A DNA stretch of 62,759 nt, the filler included, from a bacterium (GTDB lineage Bacteria > JAMORN01): the NCBI GenBank assembly GCA_027063545.1. It is 17 parts of 17 records of this genome, joined end to end, with 100 filler letters (N's around TTAATTAATTAA, not from the genome) between each part and the next. Parts side by side here need not be neighbours in the genome. Positions count along the whole stretch, not along the records: positions 33,642 to 45,111 come from JAMORN010000047.1; 16 more parts are not named here. One strand, written 5' to 3'. The notes under the pieces are model-generated. The model saw only the letters and a list, made by a program, of their open reading frames with translations. It was not told the DNA's origin and searched no databases. Shown one piece after another: positions 2,246-39,841 of this stretch. The first letter of the stretch is position 1; each line of letters opens with the position of its first letter. The position numbers and the translations under genes are program-made.

Positions 2246-3533
2246 GTTATTATTATCTTTTATTTTATTATTAACTACAATAATTCAATTATATGCGAAA
2301 TGGGAAGTAGCAGAACAAATTGTTGCTATTGTGGATAATGAACCTATTCTTTTATCTGATGTAAATAGTTATTTACAATACTATTTTATGTATAATAAAA
2401 TAGATATAAGAATGTTAACAGAGGAAGATTTTAAACAATATCAAAAAAAAGCTCTTGAAAATCTTATAAATTCAAAGGTATTAGTAAAAGAGGCAGAAAG
2501 GGAATCATTAAATGTGAATTCTGATAAGATATCTCAGGAGGTAGATAAACAAATTGATCAATTAATTAATCAATTTGGCTCAAAGGATAAGTTTGTTGAA
2601 GCTTTAAAATCTCAAGGTATGGATATTGTAGATTTTAGAACAATGAAGTTTAATCAAATTAAAGAACAGATGTTAGAATATATTATGAAAAATAAGCTTA
2701 GATCAGAACTTTCTATAACAAAAGATATGATTATAGAGTTTTATAATACCCATAAAGATAGTTTTCCGGCTCAAGATGAAAGTTACAGATTATCTATCTA
2801 TAAAACACCAATATATTTGGAAGGTAATAGAAAAAAGATTTTATATGATTCTTTGTCAACTATAAGACAAAAAATAGTAAGTGGTAAGTTATCATTTGAG
2901 GAAGCTGCTAAACTCTACTCTCAAGGTCCTATGAAAGATAAAGGAGGAGATCTAGGGTTTGTAAAAAAAGGAGATTTAATACCAGAATTAGAGAAAGTAG
3001 CATTTGCTTTAGATATAGATTCTATTTCTCCTATAATTGAGACAAATGTAGGACTTCATTTATTAAAAGTTATAGATAGAGATAAGGATAGGGTAAGATT
3101 AAGACATATTGTTTTTTTATTTAATATAACTGAAAAAGATATTAAATATTCAAAATTATATTTAGATTCTTTAATAAATTTAGTATATAAAGATACAACT
3201 TTATCATTAGAGAGTTTAGATAGTTCTATAAAAAAGATTATTTCTTCAGAATGGATTAAGTATAAAGATTTACAACCACAATTTCAGCAGGCTATAGAAG
3301 AATTAAAGATAGATTCTTTAACTTATTTCCCCAAATATACAAGACCTATTTTACTAGATAAGAATTTTTATATTTTAGAAATTTTAGATTATAAACCTAA
3401 AAGATATTTAAGTTTAAAAGATGATTGGAATATAATAGAAGAAAAAGCCCGAGAATATTATTTACAAAAATACTTTGAAGATAAATTAAGAGAATGGAAG
3501 AAGAATTTTTATATAGAAGTTAGAATGAAATGA
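2220..3533 (+). CDS. surA: Periplasmic chaperone/PPIase SurA
   Basis: Signal peptide, IVAIVDNEPILLSD, parvulin motif FEEAAKLYSQGP..KGGDLGF...GLHLLKV; upstream of pdxA. Confidence 0.88.
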   Translation: MTMKYFISKLLLSFILLLTTIIQLYAKWEVAEQIVAIVDNEPILLSDVNSYLQYYFMYNKIDIRMLTEEDFKQYQKKALENLINSKVLVKEAERESLNVNSDKISQEVDKQIDQLINQFGSKDKFVEALKSQGMDIVDFRTMKFNQIKEQMLEYIMKNKLRSELSITKDMIIEFYNTHKDSFPAQDESYRLSIYKTPIYLEGNRKKILYDSLSTIRQKIVSGKLSFEEAAKLYSQGPMKDKGGDLGFVKKGDLIPELEKVAFALDIDSISPIIETNVGLHLLKVIDRDKDRVRLRHIVFLFNITEKDIKYSKLYLDSLINLVYKDTTLSLESLDSSIKKIISSEWIKYKDLQPQFQQAIEELKIDSLTYFPKYTRPILLDKNFYILEILDYKPKRYLSLKDDWNIIEEKAREYYLQKYFEDKLREWKKNFYIEVRMK

Positions 3534-4519
3534 AAAGGATTCATATTACTATAGGAGATCCAGGTGGTATAGGTGTTGAAACTTTAATTTTAGGGATAAA
3601 TAAGTTGTTAAATACTGACTCAGAGTTTTTTTCTAAGTTTATCACATTAATTTATACACCATTTTCAGTTATTGAAAGATATAAAGATAAAATAAGTTTT
3701 GATTATAATATTATTGAAGATATAGATAAAGCTCAAAGTGGTATAAATATATTTAATATAAAAGAGTTAAATAAAATAGACTACCAAATAGGGACTATAG
3801 ATAAAAATAATGGTTATATAGCAGCAAAAAGTATAGAAGAGGCATTAAAATACATAAAGCCCAAGGAGGTACTAATAACTTTACCCATAAATAAAGAAAG
3901 TATAAATCTTGCTGGGTATAAGTTTAATGGACATACAGAATTCTTAGCTTTTTTAACAAATACAGAAGAAGTTTTTATGAGTTTTTGGGGTAAAATAAAT
4001 ACTTTGCTATTAACAACACATATATCAATGGAAGACATGATTAAAAAAATTAGAGATAAAGATTATGTCTATACAAAGATAAAAAATAGCTCTAAATTAA
4101 TTGAGGAAGTATATGGAAGAAAAATAAAATTTGGACTTTGCGGTTTAAATCCCCATGCGGGTGAAAATGGTCTTATGGGAAAGGAAGAAGTTGAAGTTTT
4201 ATCTCCAGTTGTTGAAAGGTTAAGAAAAGATGGGATAGATATATCTTATCCTCAACCTTCAGATACAATATTTTATAGATATTTAAATGGAGAATTTGAT
4301 TTTATATATAGCCTTTACCATGATCAAGCTTTAAGTGTGATAAAAACATTTTTTTTAAATAAAAGTGTAAATTTTACTTTAGGATTACCATTTTATAGAA
4401 TATCTCCAGATCATGGAACAGCTTTTGATATAGCAGGAATGTTTATTGCTAATTATGAACCTTTTATATATACTTTAAAATTTGGAATAAAGTTATATGA
4501 AAGAAATTTTAGAATTTAG
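3530..4519 (+). CDS. pdxA: 4-hydroxythreonine-4-phosphate dehydrogenase
   Basis: TIGDPGGIG, GHTEFLA, GLNPHAGE, YHDQ, SPDHGTAFDIAG motifs; surA-pdxA synteny. Confidence 0.95.
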   Translation: MKRIHITIGDPGGIGVETLILGINKLLNTDSEFFSKFITLIYTPFSVIERYKDKISFDYNIIEDIDKAQSGINIFNIKELNKIDYQIGTIDKNNGYIAAKSIEEALKYIKPKEVLITLPINKESINLAGYKFNGHTEFLAFLTNTEEVFMSFWGKINTLLLTTHISMEDMIKKIRDKDYVYTKIKNSSKLIEEVYGRKIKFGLCGLNPHAGENGLMGKEEVEVLSPVVERLRKDGIDISYPQPSDTIFYRYLNGEFDFIYSLYHDQALSVIKTFFLNKSVNFTLGLPFYRISPDHGTAFDIAGMFIANYEPFIYTLKFGIKLYERNFRI

Positions 4520-5120
4520 AGATTTTAATATAAAGATAAAGGATAGTTTTATTTTTCCTAATGATTTAAATATTAAATTATTAGAAAATGATTTTTCTGT
4601 TGTAGAAACAGATTATAAAGATGAAATTTTAAATGTTCTATTAGGTAAATTTTATGACTATAAAGGAGATATAATATTCCTAGAAACATCTATAAAAAAT
4701 TTACCACAAAAATTTATCCATAAACGAATAAGTTATATTTCTAGTTATAATTCATTTTTATCTGAAATGAGTGTTTTTGAAAATATAGAGCTTTCTGTTT
4801 ATTTTAAGAACAGAGACTATATAAAAAATTTATTTGATTATTTAAAAGAAAATAATCAAATAAATTTCCTTTTATATAAAAAGGTTAAAGATTTAACAGA
4901 TTTTGAATATGAAAGGTTAATGATAATAAGAGCAATTTCAAGACTTCCCCATCTTTTAATTGTAGATGAGATTTTATACTCAGAAAATATAGATTTCTTT
5001 TTTAAGAATTTAAGTTTTTTTAAAGAGTTTAATACCTTTACAATTTTATGGCTTGTAAGAAAAGATAAAAAGAAAATTTTAAAGAAATATTGCAATGAAG
5101 AAAATTATATTAGTTTTTAA
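4497..5120 (+). CDS. ftsE: Degenerate FtsE-like ABC ATP-binding protein
   Basis: Keeps SVFENI and Walker B LLIVDE but lacks Walker A; immediately upstream of ftsX-like and envC-like genes. Confidence 0.65.
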   Translation: MKEILEFRDFNIKIKDSFIFPNDLNIKLLENDFSVVETDYKDEILNVLLGKFYDYKGDIIFLETSIKNLPQKFIHKRISYISSYNSFLSEMSVFENIELSVYFKNRDYIKNLFDYLKENNQINFLLYKKVKDLTDFEYERLMIIRAISRLPHLLIVDEILYSENIDFFFKNLSFFKEFNTFTILWLVRKDKKKILKKYCNEENYISF

Positions 5121-33641: not shown

Positions 33642-34310
33642 CTTTTCACCTACTAAATATAACTTATCATTATATAGAGAAATATATTTAACTACCCCAG
33701 ATTTTAAGCCTTCTTTTCTTGTGATAAAATCAATATTTCCATTTTTGGTATTATATACCATTACACCTATTGCCTTAGGATACCATAATCCAATATAGAG
33801 ATTATCTTTATATTTTACTAAAGAACTATTTACCACATCTGTTATATATATTTTAGGCATTTCCTTAGAATACTTTTGCTGATATTTCTTTGCAAATTCC
33901 TTTATTTTAACTCTCTTTTCTACTTTAAAATTTTTTATATTCACCTTTATTAAACCTTTATCTGCTGAAAAAATCCATATATAATCACCATCTTTTACAT
34001 AACTTACACCAAAAGCATTAAAATTCTTTCTCAATAATAAAGAAGCTTTATTATTTTCATCTACTTTATACTTGTTAATACTTCCATCCTTTGTCCCAAA
34101 AATCAAGTTTCCTTCATTATCTCCTTTGAAGATTGCAATAACATGATTCTCCCTTCTACTCATTGTAAGCTTTCCAGAAACAATATCATTATTATTCATC
34201 AAAGATGAATAAACCATCCATAATATTGGGAAAAGATTTAAAAATACTACTATAAATGTTAGTATATTTAATATATAATGTGTGATCTTCTTTTTAACAG
34301 TGTAATCCAT
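33642..34310 (-). CDS. MalG-type carbohydrate ABC permease N-terminus with beta-propeller-like insertion (3' truncated)
   Basis: FPILWMVYSSL TM1 motif followed by repeated beta-blade segments; third gene of the SBP-permease operon. Confidence 0.75.
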
Positions 34311-34333
34311 ACACCCTCATCCCCTTTAACTTT

Positions 34334-35338
34334 TTATGTAGTTAAACTTTCTCCAAATATCTTATACCATATTATTACCAATATAACCATTACAATCATC
34401 AATATAACAGAAGCTGCTGCACCTATACCAAAATGCATCCCTATAAAAGCATTTCTAAATATATTTGTCATAAGTAAATCGCCATACTTTCCTGGAAATC
34501 CTCCACCATTACCAAACATCATTATTACTATATTAAATGAGTATACATTATATATCATTCCAAATAATATCAATACAGCCCATACTGGCTTTAATAATGG
34601 AACTGTAATATGCCAAAATTTCTGCCATGCATTTGCTCCATCTATATCTGCAGATTCATATACATCCTTACTAATATTTTGAAGCCCAGCTAATAGCATA
34701 AGCATAGAAAGAGGCCAAAATCTCCATATAGTAGGTATAATTATGGCCCATAGTGTTAAAGGTCCATTTAACCAATCAGGTTTAGATGGCAATAAATGAA
34801 GAATATCTACCAAAATCACATTTATAATACCCTCATTTTTCAACCACATAAATCCCCATAAAAAACCTACAACATAAGTTGGAACTACCCAAGGAAATAA
34901 AAGGAGCGTTCTAGCAATAGAACGCCCCTTAAATTCTCTATTTACAAGTAGTGCTACAATCATTCCAAAAATTATCTGTCCTGCTGTCACTAAAACAGCA
35001 TACCAAAATGTATTTCTAATAGCATACATCAATCCATTTCTTATTATACTATTTTTATTAAACAATACCTCATAATAATTTTTAAAACCTACAAATGGAG
35101 CTGTCAAATAATTTGTTAAAGTATCCTTTTCTACATCTAAAAATGACATCCATATAGCCTGTAATATTGGCAATAAATGTATAATAAGCATCCCCATTAT
35201 TGTTGGAAGTAAAAAGTAATATGCCATTTTATATTTTTTTGTCTTTTTAAAGGAATTTACAGCTATTATATATATAGCTACAACAGCAACAAGTACTAGA
35301 AGAATTCCACTTAAGTATACTAGTCCCTTTCCTGTCAT
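34334..35338 (-). CDS. MalF-type carbohydrate ABC permease
   Basis: FVGFKNY, LLLFPWVVP, EAA loop YESADIDGANAWQKFWHITVPLL. Confidence 0.93.
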   Translation of the reverse strand: MTGKGLVYLSGILLVLVAVVAIYIIAVNSFKKTKKYKMAYYFLLPTIMGMLIIHLLPILQAIWMSFLDVEKDTLTNYLTAPFVGFKNYYEVLFNKNSIIRNGLMYAIRNTFWYAVLVTAGQIIFGMIVALLVNREFKGRSIARTLLLFPWVVPTYVVGFLWGFMWLKNEGIINVILVDILHLLPSKPDWLNGPLTLWAIIIPTIWRFWPLSMLMLLAGLQNISKDVYESADIDGANAWQKFWHITVPLLKPVWAVLILFGMIYNVYSFNIVIMMFGNGGGFPGKYGDLLMTNIFRNAFIGMHFGIGAAASVILMIVMVILVIIWYKIFGESLTT

Positions 35339-35362
35339 AATATTTTCCCTCTTTATTTCTTA

Positions 35363-36826
35363 CTATTTTTTTGTTGTATTAGCTTTTGCTTCTACTTTAT
35401 TTTGTTGTGCAGCCTTTAAAGAATCAATTATTGCCTTATGTTCTGGATGCTCTTTCAAATCTTTTGCTATTATATTCCTTATTCTATTTGCGGCATCTTT
35501 TAATATCTTTGCTATATCTTTTTTATTAATCTTATCATTAGGTGTTAATTTTATATATTCAAAAATATCACCAAAAGATACTGTTAATACACTTGTTTCT
35601 ATTTCAGCCCAATATGGAACACTAGGATAAGCTTTTCCATATTCTGTCATTTCTTTAAATACTCTTCTTATAGGATCATCTGTAAAGTATGGATCATTAA
35701 ATGCAGCTTTATATGCTGGCAATAATCCACATTTTTGGAAATATCCTATTTGGGCATCTATATCTGTTGTTAAAAATTTTAAGAGTTTTTTAGCTTCTTC
35801 AGGATGTTTTGTAGATTTGAATATAGCTAAATTAGATCCTCCCAAGAACAATATCCTTCCTGCAGGACCTGCTGGTGGTAATGCTACACCATAATTTTTT
35901 GCTCCTATTGTATTTGAAGCACCACCTTGTTCTGGCGGCTTATTTAAATAGATATATTTACTTGTTGGCTCAAACCATGTAGCAATTCTTCCTTGATCAA
36001 ATTCTACAGAAAGTTGAGCAGTATTCTTTTCCAAATAATCCTTAGGCATTAATCCATCTTTAACAAAAGATATATAATACATAACCCCTTTTAATGTTTG
36101 AGGAGAATCTAACAAAACACTATCACCATATTCAGAAATTATATCTCCACCTGCCATCCAAATCCATGGAGCTAAATTATGAACGACATTCCAGTCATTT
36201 TTACCAGGATAACCTATAGGTGCTACTTTTTGTCCATCTATTACTAAATTAGCCTTTTTAATTTTTTCTAAAGCCTTTTTAAATCCTTCCCAATCCTTTA
36301 TATCATCTAATTTTATTCCAACCTTTTCAAATACATCCTTTCTATAGTATAATGGTCTTACATCAACTATCCATGGTAATGATGTTACATGTTTTGAGAA
36401 AACAGGCTTTGCATATGTCCATAATCCCTTTACAAAAGCACTTTCTCCACCCACTTCTTTTGCTAAATCATCTAAAGGTAGTAAAGCATTCATTCCTGTA
36501 ATTAAAGATGTCCATGTTGTACCAAGTTGGACTAAATCTGGGGCATCTCCACTAGTTGCTGCTGTTGTAATTTTTGTCCATGCAGCTCCCCAGTCTAAAA
36601 CTTCTACTTTCACTTTTATATTAGGATTTTCTTCTAAAAATGGTTTTAATATCTCATTCAAATCCTCAGCAGGTTTACTAGAATTAGGCATTATCCAGAT
36701 TCTTAATTGAACCTGTTGAGATTCATTAGATTTTGTTTTTTGTTGATTCTTATTCTTAGAACAAGATACAAATATAGATGATACTAAAAATATTAATGTC
36801 AGTATTAACAAGCTAACTTTTTTCAT
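35363..36826 (-). CDS. Carbohydrate ABC substrate-binding lipoprotein (SBP family 1)
   Basis: Lipobox IFVSC, ENPNIKVKV..LDW, APDLVQLGTTW, LYYRKD, FLGGSNLAIFK; SD AGGAGG. Confidence 0.93.
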   Translation of the reverse strand: MKKVSLLILTLIFLVSSIFVSCSKNKNQQKTKSNESQQVQLRIWIMPNSSKPAEDLNEILKPFLEENPNIKVKVEVLDWGAAWTKITTAATSGDAPDLVQLGTTWTSLITGMNALLPLDDLAKEVGGESAFVKGLWTYAKPVFSKHVTSLPWIVDVRPLYYRKDVFEKVGIKLDDIKDWEGFKKALEKIKKANLVIDGQKVAPIGYPGKNDWNVVHNLAPWIWMAGGDIISEYGDSVLLDSPQTLKGVMYYISFVKDGLMPKDYLEKNTAQLSVEFDQGRIATWFEPTSKYIYLNKPPEQGGASNTIGAKNYGVALPPAGPAGRILFLGGSNLAIFKSTKHPEEAKKLLKFLTTDIDAQIGYFQKCGLLPAYKAAFNDPYFTDDPIRRVFKEMTEYGKAYPSVPYWAEIETSVLTVSFGDIFEYIKLTPNDKINKKDIAKILKDAANRIRNIIAKDLKEHPEHKAIIDSLKAAQQNKVEAKANTTKK

Positions 36827-36928: not shown

Positions 36929-38218
36929 TTAAATAACTATTTTATTTTTCCCTTCTCTTTTAGCCTTATATAATTTCTCATCTACAGATAAAAAATAAGA
37001 AGTTATATCTCCTTCTTCTATAAACTCTGATAAATCTGATATACCTGCTGAAAATGTTAATTTAAATAAATGTTCCTTATCTTTCAAATATTCTTTTATT
37101 TTGAATTTTATTCTTGGAATTATAGATTCTAATACCATTTCCTTCGTGGCATTTAAACATATTATAACAAACTCATCTCCTCCATATCTATATACTATAT
37201 CTGATTTTCTTACCGATTCTAAAAGACTCCTCCCCACTATTTTTAATACTTCATCTCCTACAAGATGACCATAATTATCATTAATTGTTTTAAAATTATC
37301 TATATCTATTATAGCTATAGATAAGGAAGTCTTTAATCGTATAGCATTAGCAATCATTTTTTTAAGCATTTCTTCTCCATATCTTCTATTATATACTCCT
37401 GTTAAAGGATCTGCAATAGCAAGTTTAATATTAACTTCATTCTTCTTTACTAACTCTATATAAGAAGACACAATTTCTCTTAAGTATTTTAAATCCAATT
37501 GAAAATCTGAAGAAAAATATATTGTTACTTTATCTCTATCTTTTAAAATAATTTCACATTTAGAACAAAATTTACTATTCTTTAAATTTTCATCTCCTAT
37601 TTTATATATTTCCTTATTGCCCAGTATATAAAATACTCCTTCAATATATAATACATCAACAATTTGATTTAGAATAAAAAATAGACTCTGTAAATAATTA
37701 TATAAACTTTCCTTATTTAAATCCTCTAATAAATCTTCCCAAAATTTTCTTAATGTATTTTCTAAAAGTATAGTTGAAAATACTTCAAATATCTTGTAGT
37801 AATTAACTGTCACATTTATTAAACTATGTTGTTTCGCATAATTTTTATAATAAGTCAATATTTCTTTTGTAGTCTGTTCATCTTCTTTATCTATATTTTC
37901 AAATAACTTAATCCCTAAATACGAAGAATACAATCTAACATCTTTAGAAAAAGAATCGTTTGATACAAGGGAAAATGGGATAATTTGCTCTATTTCAGAT
38001 ATTATAAGAAAAATTTTAAATATTTCATTTTTATATAATGGATTATATTCGACTAAAAATCCTCCAAAATTGTGTTTTAAAATATATTCTATAACTTTTT
38101 TATCCAATAAAGAAGAATCTTTTTCTAATTTAAAAAAGCACCATTGGATATTATTATCTTCTAAGTTTTTAAACTTGTTGACAAATCTATCATTATAATA
38201 TAATACTACTACTTTCAT
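36929..38218 (-). CDS. Diguanylate cyclase with N-terminal pseudo-receiver-like region
   Basis: DPLTGVYNRR, DIDNFKTINDNYGH, RKSD I-site, RYGGDEF. Confidence 0.9.
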   Translation of the reverse strand: MKVVVLYYNDRFVNKFKNLEDNNIQWCFFKLEKDSSLLDKKVIEYILKHNFGGFLVEYNPLYKNEIFKIFLIISEIEQIIPFSLVSNDSFSKDVRLYSSYLGIKLFENIDKEDEQTTKEILTYYKNYAKQHSLINVTVNYYKIFEVFSTILLENTLRKFWEDLLEDLNKESLYNYLQSLFFILNQIVDVLYIEGVFYILGNKEIYKIGDENLKNSKFCSKCEIILKDRDKVTIYFSSDFQLDLKYLREIVSSYIELVKKNEVNIKLAIADPLTGVYNRRYGEEMLKKMIANAIRLKTSLSIAIIDIDNFKTINDNYGHLVGDEVLKIVGRSLLESVRKSDIVYRYGGDEFVIICLNATKEMVLESIIPRIKFKIKEYLKDKEHLFKLTFSAGISDLSEFIEEGDITSYFLSVDEKLYKAKREGKNKIVI

Positions 38219-38292: not shown

Positions 38293-39594
38293 TTACTCCT
38301 GAGTAGCTTTGAATGCTTCATCAGCCCATTCTAACGAAGAGATGTAATATTGAGAAACATCATCTAAAGAAATATTTGTACCATTTAGAATTTCTTCTAA
38401 AACATCTATTTTCTGTTCTTCATATAATAGTATAATATTTAATACAACCCCATATTCATTTTTAGAATTTTTAATTAAAGCATTTTTAATTTCATCATCC
38501 AAAGGAATGTCTCCTAATATTTCTTCCTTTGGCTTATCTAAAATAACATCTATTAAAGAAAATAATCCCATTAAAAAGAACTTTTCCTTCATATCGGAGA
38601 ATCCTAACTTCTCTGCTAATAATTCTGCGAATTTTGCTCTAAGAAGGGATAAACGTAGTACTTCTGAAGGTTTATCTGAAGCTAAAGTAGCAAAAATAGT
38701 AACTGTTACCCAACGTTTTATTTCTTTATCGCCTAATAATACTAAAGCAGTCTTTATTGAATCAATTTCTCTTGTTAATCCAAAGAATGCAGAATTGATA
38801 TATTTTAATAGTTTATAACTTAATGCTAAATCTCTTTTTATGATATCTTCTAGCTTTTTATAATCTAACTCTGGGGAATGAATCTCTTTTAATATTTGTA
38901 AATAATTTAACTTATTTCCCTCTATATCTTTAGCAGCTATTATTAATGGTCTAGAAAAGAAATTACCAGAAAATAAAGAAAAACTTAAAGATTTAGCTTT
39001 TTCAAAATCCTCTCTACTATTTAAATTATCAGCAATAGCCTCAATACCATAATCAAAAACTGTAGTCAAAATATTCTTTATTTCATCTTCACTATTTCTT
39101 AAAAAATCTATCTTCACCATATTAGCAGCTGCCAAAAGAGGAGAAGCTAATCCTGAAAAATTAAAATTATCTAACACTATAATATAACCACTATTATGTA
39201 GACGATTTACAGCTATCCTATATTCATCATCTACATCTTTAGACAAATATTGTTCTATAAGTATACCTATATAATTCTTAGGTAAGGTATATATAAAATC
39301 TGATTTTAAAAGATTTTTAGTGAATTTTATGAGCCCCCTTTTATTATTTATGGCTTTTTTTAATCCTATAAGGGAAAAAATATTATTTATACCTATTATT
39401 GTTCCCTTATCCTTTTCTGTATAACCAGAACTTTCTAAATCCTCAAGAGTAGGAAAATCTTCAACATCTTCTTTGAACTCTTCTTTAGAAAAAAAAGAGA
39501 AATCTTTAGGTGATGTCCTAAAGATTAATTCATAAGCAAAAACATCCAAATCTACTGAAAATATAGGCTTTCTAAATAACACAAAATTTTTCAT
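38293..39594 (-). CDS. EAL-HDOD (YuxH/PdeH-like) protein with degenerate EAL residues
   Basis: RKPIF...AYELIFR; HDOD DLALSYKLLKYINSAFFG...RAKFAE...FLMGLFSLID. Confidence 0.9.
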   Translation of the reverse strand: MKNFVLFRKPIFSVDLDVFAYELIFRTSPKDFSFFSKEEFKEDVEDFPTLEDLESSGYTEKDKGTIIGINNIFSLIGLKKAINNKRGLIKFTKNLLKSDFIYTLPKNYIGILIEQYLSKDVDDEYRIAVNRLHNSGYIIVLDNFNFSGLASPLLAAANMVKIDFLRNSEDEIKNILTTVFDYGIEAIADNLNSREDFEKAKSLSFSLFSGNFFSRPLIIAAKDIEGNKLNYLQILKEIHSPELDYKKLEDIIKRDLALSYKLLKYINSAFFGLTREIDSIKTALVLLGDKEIKRWVTVTIFATLASDKPSEVLRLSLLRAKFAELLAEKLGFSDMKEKFFLMGLFSLIDVILDKPKEEILGDIPLDDEIKNALIKNSKNEYGVVLNIILLYEEQKIDVLEEILNGTNISLDDVSQYYISSLEWADEAFKATQE

Positions 39595-39673
39595 ATTATT
39601 AAATTAAATGTTTTACATATTGCTTATCAACAATAATATTAGAAGAAAATAATATTTCTTTAACAAAATTATA

Positions 39674-39747
39674 CGGGGACGACGGGGCTCGAACCCGCAA
39701 CTTCCGGCGTGACAGGCCGGTGCTCTAACCAGTTGAACTACGCCCCC
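39674..39747 (-). tRNA. tRNA-Asp (anticodon GTC), CCA not encoded
   Basis: Reverse complement GGGGGCGTAGTTCAACTGGTTAGAGCACCGGCCTGTCACGCCGGAAGTTGCGGGTTCGAGCCCCGTCGTCCCCG. Confidence 0.97.
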
Positions 39748-39762
39748 GAATATTTGAAATAA

Positions 39763-39837
39763 TGGGCGATAGAGGACTCGAACCTCTGACCCCCTGCTTG
39801 TAAGGCAGGTGCTCTAAACCAACTGAGCTAATCGCCC
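39763..39837 (-). tRNA. tRNA-Val (anticodon TAC), CCA not encoded
   Basis: Reverse complement GGGCGATTAGCTCAGTTGGTTTAGAGCACCTGCCTTACAAGCAGGGGGTCAGAGGTTCGAGTCCTCTATCGCCCA. Confidence 0.97.
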
Positions 39838-39841
39838 ATTA

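Follow-up and report, generated by a model that had tools for sequence, protein, structure and literature searches.

A predicted seven-bladed propeller within the MalG-type permease of a likely cellodextrin importer

Three genes at a contig edge

The window analyzed here is a 62,759-nucleotide stretch in which contigs of one bacterial genome (G000; NCBI GenBank assembly GCA_027063545.1) were chained via N-linkers. At the edge of contig G000:C47 (JAMORN010000047.1) are three open reading frames, all on the minus strand, for parts of a sugar ABC (ATP-binding cassette) importer: a solute-binding protein (SBP) of 487 amino acids (35363..36826; SBP_bac_1, E = 6e-37), a MalF-type permease of 334 amino acids (34334..35338; BPD_transp_1, E = 1.6e-20), and a MalG-type permease (33642..34310), which is truncated at the contig end after its first 223 codons. 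The initial annotation had described this operon and had read the third gene as a MalG-type permease with a large propeller-like insertion. The motifs that it quoted, from the MalG-like start and from the blades, are all in the 223-residue translation.

The MalG-type gene starts at 34310 and runs into an N-linker at 33642. The matching contig of sequencing run X1 likewise stops at 33642, and the rest of the gene was not found in the G000 assembly. Recovery of the remainder, which the initial annotation had called for, failed in this genome but succeeded for the protein: a 652-amino-acid record from a 33-kb contig in the European Nucleotide Archive (P0002) agrees letter for letter with the window translation over residues 1–223. 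It was the sole match among 643 candidates in a search for longer proteins. Everything beyond residue 223 rests on this protein record, not on the window DNA.

P0002 begins with a transmembrane helix (TM1; residues 13–31, or 34218..34274 on the minus strand; hydropathy peak 2.29, with a helix at residues 3–36 in the predicted model), continues with an insert of about 370 amino acids, and ends with a MalG core that includes the EAA motif (547–549, with G553). The core matches BPD_transp_1 above the cut-off (residues 460–642, E = 4.7e-18). The best NCBIfam model for P0002 is MalG (E = 1.2e-35), yet the match falls below that model's equivalog cut-off. Hydropathy has six peaks (13–31, 445–463, 476–503, 516–534, 559–581, and 618–636), and the stretch from about 45 to 425 is soluble, with a maximum of 0.52. 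Two anchor motifs that are about 31 residues apart in ordinary relatives are 399 residues apart here. Over 257 columns, the core shares 62% identity with a 285-amino-acid Thermus permease that has no insert. The protein thus combines the features of MalG-type permeases of CUT1 (type I) importers: the BPD_transp_1 domain, the EAA---G motif, six membrane helices, and a partner permease and a family-1 SBP encoded next to it. Judged by its sequence, the third gene is a true MalG-type permease with a large insertion, as first annotated. The permease core of P0002 rules out a membrane-anchored propeller without a permease.

Residues 82–324 of the MalF-type protein match only positions 264–511 of the 520-position MalF model; this alignment shows a predicted permease that lacks the large P2 loop of Escherichia coli MalF. 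No gene for a MalK-type ATPase was found upstream in the locus, and the contig breaks downstream. A MalK-type fragment on another contig (G000:C344) is 72% identical to the MalK from a Fibrobacterota operon of the same permease family, and we infer that a MalK-type ATPase encoded elsewhere would pair with this transporter.

The insert is a predicted propeller

The part of the insert that is encoded in the window, in the loop between TM1 and TM2, comprises blades 1–3 and the start of blade 4 (33642..34163, minus strand; residues 50–223 of about 50–423). In an AlphaFold2 model built from a 9-row alignment, residues 50–423 form seven groups of four strands each, 28 in all, for the most part with pLDDT (predicted local distance difference test) values of 76–94; the propeller also has two low-confidence loops. 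When this model was compared to known structures, the best matches were seven-bladed propellers, such as EED (Z = 24.0, root-mean-square deviation 3.0, 287 residues aligned). A model from the ESM Atlas gave the same seven-bladed picture in structure search. The insert is therefore predicted to be a seven-bladed propeller, in line with the propeller-like fold that was suggested from the first 223 residues.

The initial annotation also noted a likeness to the propellers of hybrid two-component sensors, and profile comparisons bear this out. Across the insert positions, a family profile (A2) matched the solved sensor chains 4a2l, 3v9f, 3ott, and 3va6 with E = 9e-28 to 6e-23, while natural WD40 chains matched it only at E = 0.003 or worse. 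In a large protein set, 14 of 118 matches to A2 were Reg_prop proteins. By these similarities, the insert is homologous to the propellers of the Bacteroides hybrid two-component sensors, and it was likely borrowed from a sensor-type protein. The sensor chains did not appear among the 50 best structural matches to the full model, an absence that does not exclude them. Pfam's Reg_prop model scores the window protein at 13.9 bits, below the cut-off of 20.4, and is above that cut-off in two of the 44 proteins scanned (P0040 and P0041). As a control for chance, we scored window residues 50–223 with an insert profile from 26 relatives that excluded P0002 and the three proteins closest to it: the score was 131 bits, and 500 shuffled sequences scored at most 6.7. 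P0002 contains a single propeller and no Y_Y_Y, kinase, or other output domain, so it is not a Reg_prop hybrid two-component sensor. No NCBIfam or Pfam model spans the propeller-in-permease architecture.

Distribution and erosion of the propeller

We examined the best 80 of the 222 relatives found in species genomes. In the titles of these 80 loci, Fibrobacterota, Margulisbacteria (including Saganbacteria/WOR-1 and Termititenax), and Elusimicrobia predominate. The survey across phyla that the initial annotation proposed found the same architecture, with a full insert, at 52 loci; ten others have a four-blade remnant, 13 have no insert, and five could not be measured. The corresponding loop lengths are 342–403 residues (50 loci) or 491–506 (2 loci) for the full insert, 222–225 (10 loci) for the remnant, and 36 (10 loci) or 31 (3 loci) without one. 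Among 151 Fibrobacterota genomes sampled, we found 22 matches at E < 1e-60, of which 21 have reading frames of at least 613 amino acids; six were fetched, and all six have the insert. Among 121 Elusimicrobiota genomes there were 11 matches. Three of them are close members of the family, and all are short.

A tree of the membrane core alone (54 rows selected from a larger set; FastTree and IQ-TREE) places all of the insert-bearing proteins in one clade (support 87/93), with the Thermus and other short permeases outside it. The tree requires at least four changes of insert state, and a history without any loss is rejected (approximately unbiased [AU] test, p = 3e-79). The losses of blades and of the domain are in frame, and both the three-blade loss and the loss of the whole domain occurred within one Saganbacteria/WOR-1 clade. 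The simplest reading is a single gain followed by erosion in Saganbacteria/WOR-1. One gene without the insert (L063) may be a recombinant, because its short loop resembles that of other WOR-1 genes without the insert. The Elusimicrobia may never have carried the insert, because their loop looks ordinary. Placing them outside the insert clade is disfavored by the AU test (p = 0.029), for a group that was named after the tree had been inspected.

The four-blade form, at 478 amino acids, lacks blades 4–6. Its blades are confidently modeled. They fit portions of rings with seven or eight blades, and this suggests that the form is an open arc in the model. No four-bladed hemopexin ring was in the top 50 of one structure search, and Foldseek ranked two of them 14 and 33; the absence is not excluding. 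The blades that this form retains (7, 1, 2, and 3) flank the membrane links, and they are more conserved than blades 4–6 in all four identity bins. The 24 insert positions (within 50–420) where the top residue is in at least 60% of 77 rows are mostly glycines, hydrophobic residues, and residues of the repeat motif. Overall, sequence comparison points to a propeller that is optional, fast-evolving, and devoid of signaling output.

Other MalG-type permeases have different loops. In a search for Thermotoga-type MalG, five genomic stretches contained other long permeases, none of which scored against the insert profile. Nine further long matches did not fit this profile either; on visual inspection, five proteins of this kind showed different loops or additional helices. 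The first loop of MalG seems to be a recurrent insertion site.

We also noticed several unusual permeases. A form of 728–760 amino acids from Fibrobacteraceae-type genomes (L070, L084, L096–L097, L099, L102–L103; P0034, P0036, P0038) has about 130 extra, apparently helical residues between blades 2 and 3. At L018:9989-11792, the permease gene is in two frames, split within the propeller, which is probably a sequencing frameshift. A fusion of SBP and MalF (L125:625-3084) adjoins a 578-amino-acid MalG with a different loop insert (3084-4820). Other cases (L124:1958-3805 and L128:2972-4483) are a PotC-PotD-like fusion and a 503-amino-acid MalG with a helical loop insert.

The binding protein and the likely substrate

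The closest solved chains to the SBP are betaGlyBP of Thermus thermophilus (7c63, E = 1e-100) and CbpB of Clostridium thermocellum (7x0i, E = 6e-93); the next is at 8e-25. CbpB binds cellobiose to cellopentaose, as well as laminaribiose, and its transporter is described as the only cellodextrin importer of C. thermocellum (PMC9601137). The residues that are mutated in deposited betaGlyBP chains align to W79, W105, D155, and W212 of the window SBP, and these are kept in 69, 69, 69, and 68 of the family's 69 SBPs, respectively. The SBP is a predicted lipoprotein, with Cys22 invariant in all 32 aligned homologs. Genome G000 also encodes GH8 and GH9 (glycoside hydrolase [GH] family 8 and 9) proteins, two of which have a type IX secretion tail. 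Based on these similarities, the transporter is likely an importer of cellodextrins or beta-glucosides.

At 60 of the 80 loci, a GH26, GH8, GH116, GH94, GH9, GH2, GH1, or GH48-like gene is within 10 kb, as assigned by clustering and by Pfam on representatives, a count that has no background rate for sugar ABC operons generally. This gap weighs against the assignment, as do some observations about the sugar itself. Another tryptophan of the Thermus SBP corresponds to Ser289 here and is variable across the family, so the exact sugar may differ. GH26 is the commonest neighbor (33 of the 80 loci). By the activities of this family, it could indicate mannan or mixed-linkage oligomers. Finally, no GH94 phosphorylase was found in G000, which is 82.7% complete.

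The SBP gene is present in 44 of the 47 genomes that were searched (for 47 of the 80 loci), including all 11 without the insert. The three genomes with no match are metagenome-assembled genomes of unstated completeness. We had considered that the propeller might replace the SBP, and the presence of the SBP in these 44 genomes rejects this. In Saganbacteria/WOR-1 (L140–L159), the SBP gene has moved out of the permease operon and lies before a glmS-like gene and a glycoside phosphorylase-like gene. G000 encodes a second CbpB-like protein (G000:C180:26346-27783), which shares 39% identity with the window SBP across 391 residues; it is truncated by the contig end and has no evident lipoprotein cysteine.

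Two related gene clusters stood out by their content. A locus in Elusimicrobia (L069, L078, L085) includes the SBP, a GT2 glycosyltransferase, GH94, the two permeases, two GGDEF proteins, a 1990-amino-acid GH9 protein bearing a type IX secretion tail, and another GH9 protein. In Marinamargulisbacteria and Riflemargulisbacteria (L058, L061, L064, L072, L074, L080, L081), a protein of 2000 amino acids with GH8 domains is encoded directly after the permease.

Possible roles of the propeller

We propose that secreted GH8 and GH9 glucanases, whose genes are in the genome, would release short beta-glucan oligomers; that the lipoprotein SBP would bind these as its homologs CbpB and betaGlyBP do; and that the SBP would dock on MalF/MalG, with import driven by the MalK-type ATPase that is encoded elsewhere. 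This much is very probably the transporter's job. The propeller, which is in the TM1–TM2 loop, would then keep the SBP close to the channel, as MalF-P2 does. In E. coli, the P1 loop of MalG and the P2 loop of MalF both contact the N-lobe of the binding protein MalE, and MalF-P2 binds MalE at 7–22 micromolar (PMC6906923). We favor docking, one of three roles suggested by the initial annotation, because the insert is in the MalG loop that contacts MalE, because the MalF here lacks P2, and because the blades adjoining the membrane are the ones that are retained and more conserved. By analogy, the propeller may be an accessory and optional docking platform for the SBP, at somewhat less than even odds. 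For the explanation as a whole, a cellodextrin importer with a docking propeller, we estimate a probability of about 0.4.

Several findings count against docking. Mean pairwise identity is only 22% in the insert, as compared to 49% in the SBP and 64% in the core, which is low for a specific interface. We found nothing convincing in the way of SBP changes that accompany the loss of the propeller: of the SBP columns that are conserved along with the full propeller, 15 differ in one or both of the lineages without an insert, and only columns 148 and 165 differ in both, conservatively. As a lipoprotein, the SBP may already be held at the membrane. And the membrane part of the model has pLDDT below 50, so the model does not fix the pose of the propeller on the transporter.

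The propeller might instead bind oligosaccharides itself, as its sensor relatives do, and concentrate them or pass longer chains to the SBP. Such glycan capture was among the roles suggested by the initial annotation, and the homology to glycan-sensing periplasmic domains speaks for it: in BT4663, disaccharides bind to the entry surfaces of the propellers (PMC5121618). Many Fibrobacterota also have a tryptophan-rich stretch between blades 2 and 3, where two columns have tryptophan in 51% and 36% of the 77 rows, but this is not conserved in the Margulisbacteria members or in the window protein. The case is weakened further by what is conserved. Together with the four-blade form, the 22% identity of the insert and the kind of residue at its best-conserved positions speak against a conserved sugar site at the center, and at the ten loci with four blades the modeled arc would have no central shaft. 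Also, the sensors have tandem propellers and dimerize (PMC5121618), and here there is a single propeller. We consider capture unlikely. There is a similarly slim chance for its evolutionary form, in which Fibrobacterota, Margulisbacteria, and a deep-branching vent lineage have a cellodextrin importer with a grafted glycan-sensor propeller that has kept its ability to bind beta-glucan oligomers. If so, the graft would give the importer another capture site, fixed to the membrane, from which the SBP is fed, and the series of seven, four, and zero blades would show it being tuned away. The rapid divergence of the insert and the in-frame losses in Saganbacteria/WOR-1 would fit a tolerated passenger or spacer with little present function, and large loops that are apparently unrelated to this one are present elsewhere among MalG proteins (including those in PMC2246101). 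However, the length is narrow, at 342–403 residues in 50 loci that span two named phyla as well as this lineage, and the four-blade form is itself intact in ten loci, at 46% identity. A mere passenger seems doubtful to us.

The varied neighbors of the permease gene raise the idea of a scaffolding role: the propeller might hold periplasmic glycanases, carbohydrate-binding proteins, or an outer-membrane channel in place, so that products are channeled to the importer. Directly 3' of the permease, Fibrobacterota have an uncharacterized protein of 750–850 amino acids (at 8 of the 80 loci), often followed by a 680-amino-acid protein and a protein with carbohydrate-binding modules (CBM30/CBM11), and Margulisbacteria have GH8, GH116, or GH26-CBM9. 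Varied partners would account for the rapid change of the surface. But the GH26-CBM9 gene and a carbohydrate-binding-like gene adjoin the permease at full, four-blade, and no-insert loci alike, and there is a GH neighbor at 14 of 14 loci classed as no-insert, so a scaffold is improbable. Least credible of all is a sensing role, in which the propeller would detect sugar and thereby control the transporter or a signaling partner, such as the neighboring diguanylate cyclase. This would fit the propeller's ancestry and the genes for GGDEF and EAL/HDOD proteins that lie upstream on the same strand. But the 652-amino-acid protein has no output domain, and a GGDEF gene of one cluster flanks the locus in just 4 of the 80 cases, of which three are Elusimicrobia, without a propeller. 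The sensing role given in the initial annotation thus finds no support. We return to docking as our working proposal for the propeller. The series of seven, four, and no blades in one clade, along with a short-loop relative in Thermus, makes the role of the domain testable by loop swaps.

The Fibrobacterota protein of 750–850 amino acids (L006–L014, L098) has no Pfam or NCBIfam match, and its look-alikes in the ESM Atlas are hypothetical or alginate-export-like. The downstream genes in Fibrobacterota might provide a route by which the same sugars enter across the outer membrane.

DNA support and genomic context

The runs that contain the DNA of the locus are hydrothermal-vent metagenomes, and one of them may be its source. 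In a DNA run from a second study, two propeller-coding pieces (33847-34016 and 34169-34599) have zero differences from the window, and this run spans the junction from the end of MalF to the start of MalG. Together with the presence of the architecture at 52 of 80 loci, this bridging rules out a chimera of the assembly. Two RNA runs, from one sample, contained only short pieces of a related strain (5 differences per 151 bases) and gave no evidence of expression. A promoter scan was at chance level (43 vs. 45).

Directly upstream of the SBP on the minus strand are genes for the GGDEF protein (36929-38218) and the EAL/HDOD protein (38293-39594), which are preceded by tRNA-Val and tRNA-Asp (39673-39838). 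The genome is 1.57 Mb, with about 24% GC, and has no kin below the rank of domain among the genomes compared. Given its GH8 and GH9 proteins with secretion tails, this is apparently a glucan-degrading deep lineage from vent samples.

Comparison with known systems

The initial annotation called this the best candidate for an undescribed system. That was overstated: the transporter belongs with the characterized importers that use CbpB or betaGlyBP, and 13 of the 75 close relatives that could be measured have no propeller. In the literature that we searched, which leaves most subscription journals outside, no paper describes a propeller inside an ABC permease. Long PstC proteins of Pseudomonas may also have a propeller-like domain, on which the literature search gave nothing. 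From sequence comparison, then, the type of transporter appears to be characterized, and the propeller is an optional add-on that is apparently not in print. That the transporter is of a characterized type and the domain dispensable lowers the importance of the finding. Still, the family marks a probable cellodextrin importer in lineages whose uptake is poorly known. A 2019 study described cellodextrin transport in Fibrobacter succinogenes as unknown (PMC6851124).

Among solved SBPs, those of the CbpB/betaGlyBP importers are closest to the window SBP by over 60 orders of magnitude in E-value, and transporter B of C. thermocellum also has an SBP-permease-permease cluster that is reported without an ATPase (PMC9601137). 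The Thermus permeases that were found, in contrast, have 285–286 amino acids, lack the insert, and branch outside the clade with the propeller, and the Thermus SBP has an aromatic residue where the window SBP has serine. E. coli MalEFGK2 is a type I importer as well, and one of its permeases also bears an added periplasmic domain; the insert here occupies the counterpart of the MalG P1 loop, the one in contact with MalE (PMC6906923). But the extra domain of E. coli is on MalF and is Ig-like, while here it is on MalG and is a predicted propeller, for which docking is a proposal. Another parallel is with MalG1 and MalG2 of Thermotogales, in which TM1 and TM2 are separated by a hydrophilic stretch of about 500 residues with unknown function; that report names no fold for it and detected no similarity to known proteins (PMC2246101). 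Those permeases are of a maltose/manno-oligosaccharide lineage, and we compared them by description only. The Bacteroides sensors BT4663, BT4673, and BT3049 share homologous blades, an extracytoplasmic location, and a context of glycan use with the insert. Each sensor combines two propellers with Y_Y_Y, kinase, receiver, and AraC domains, whereas here one propeller, with none of these, is set inside a permease.

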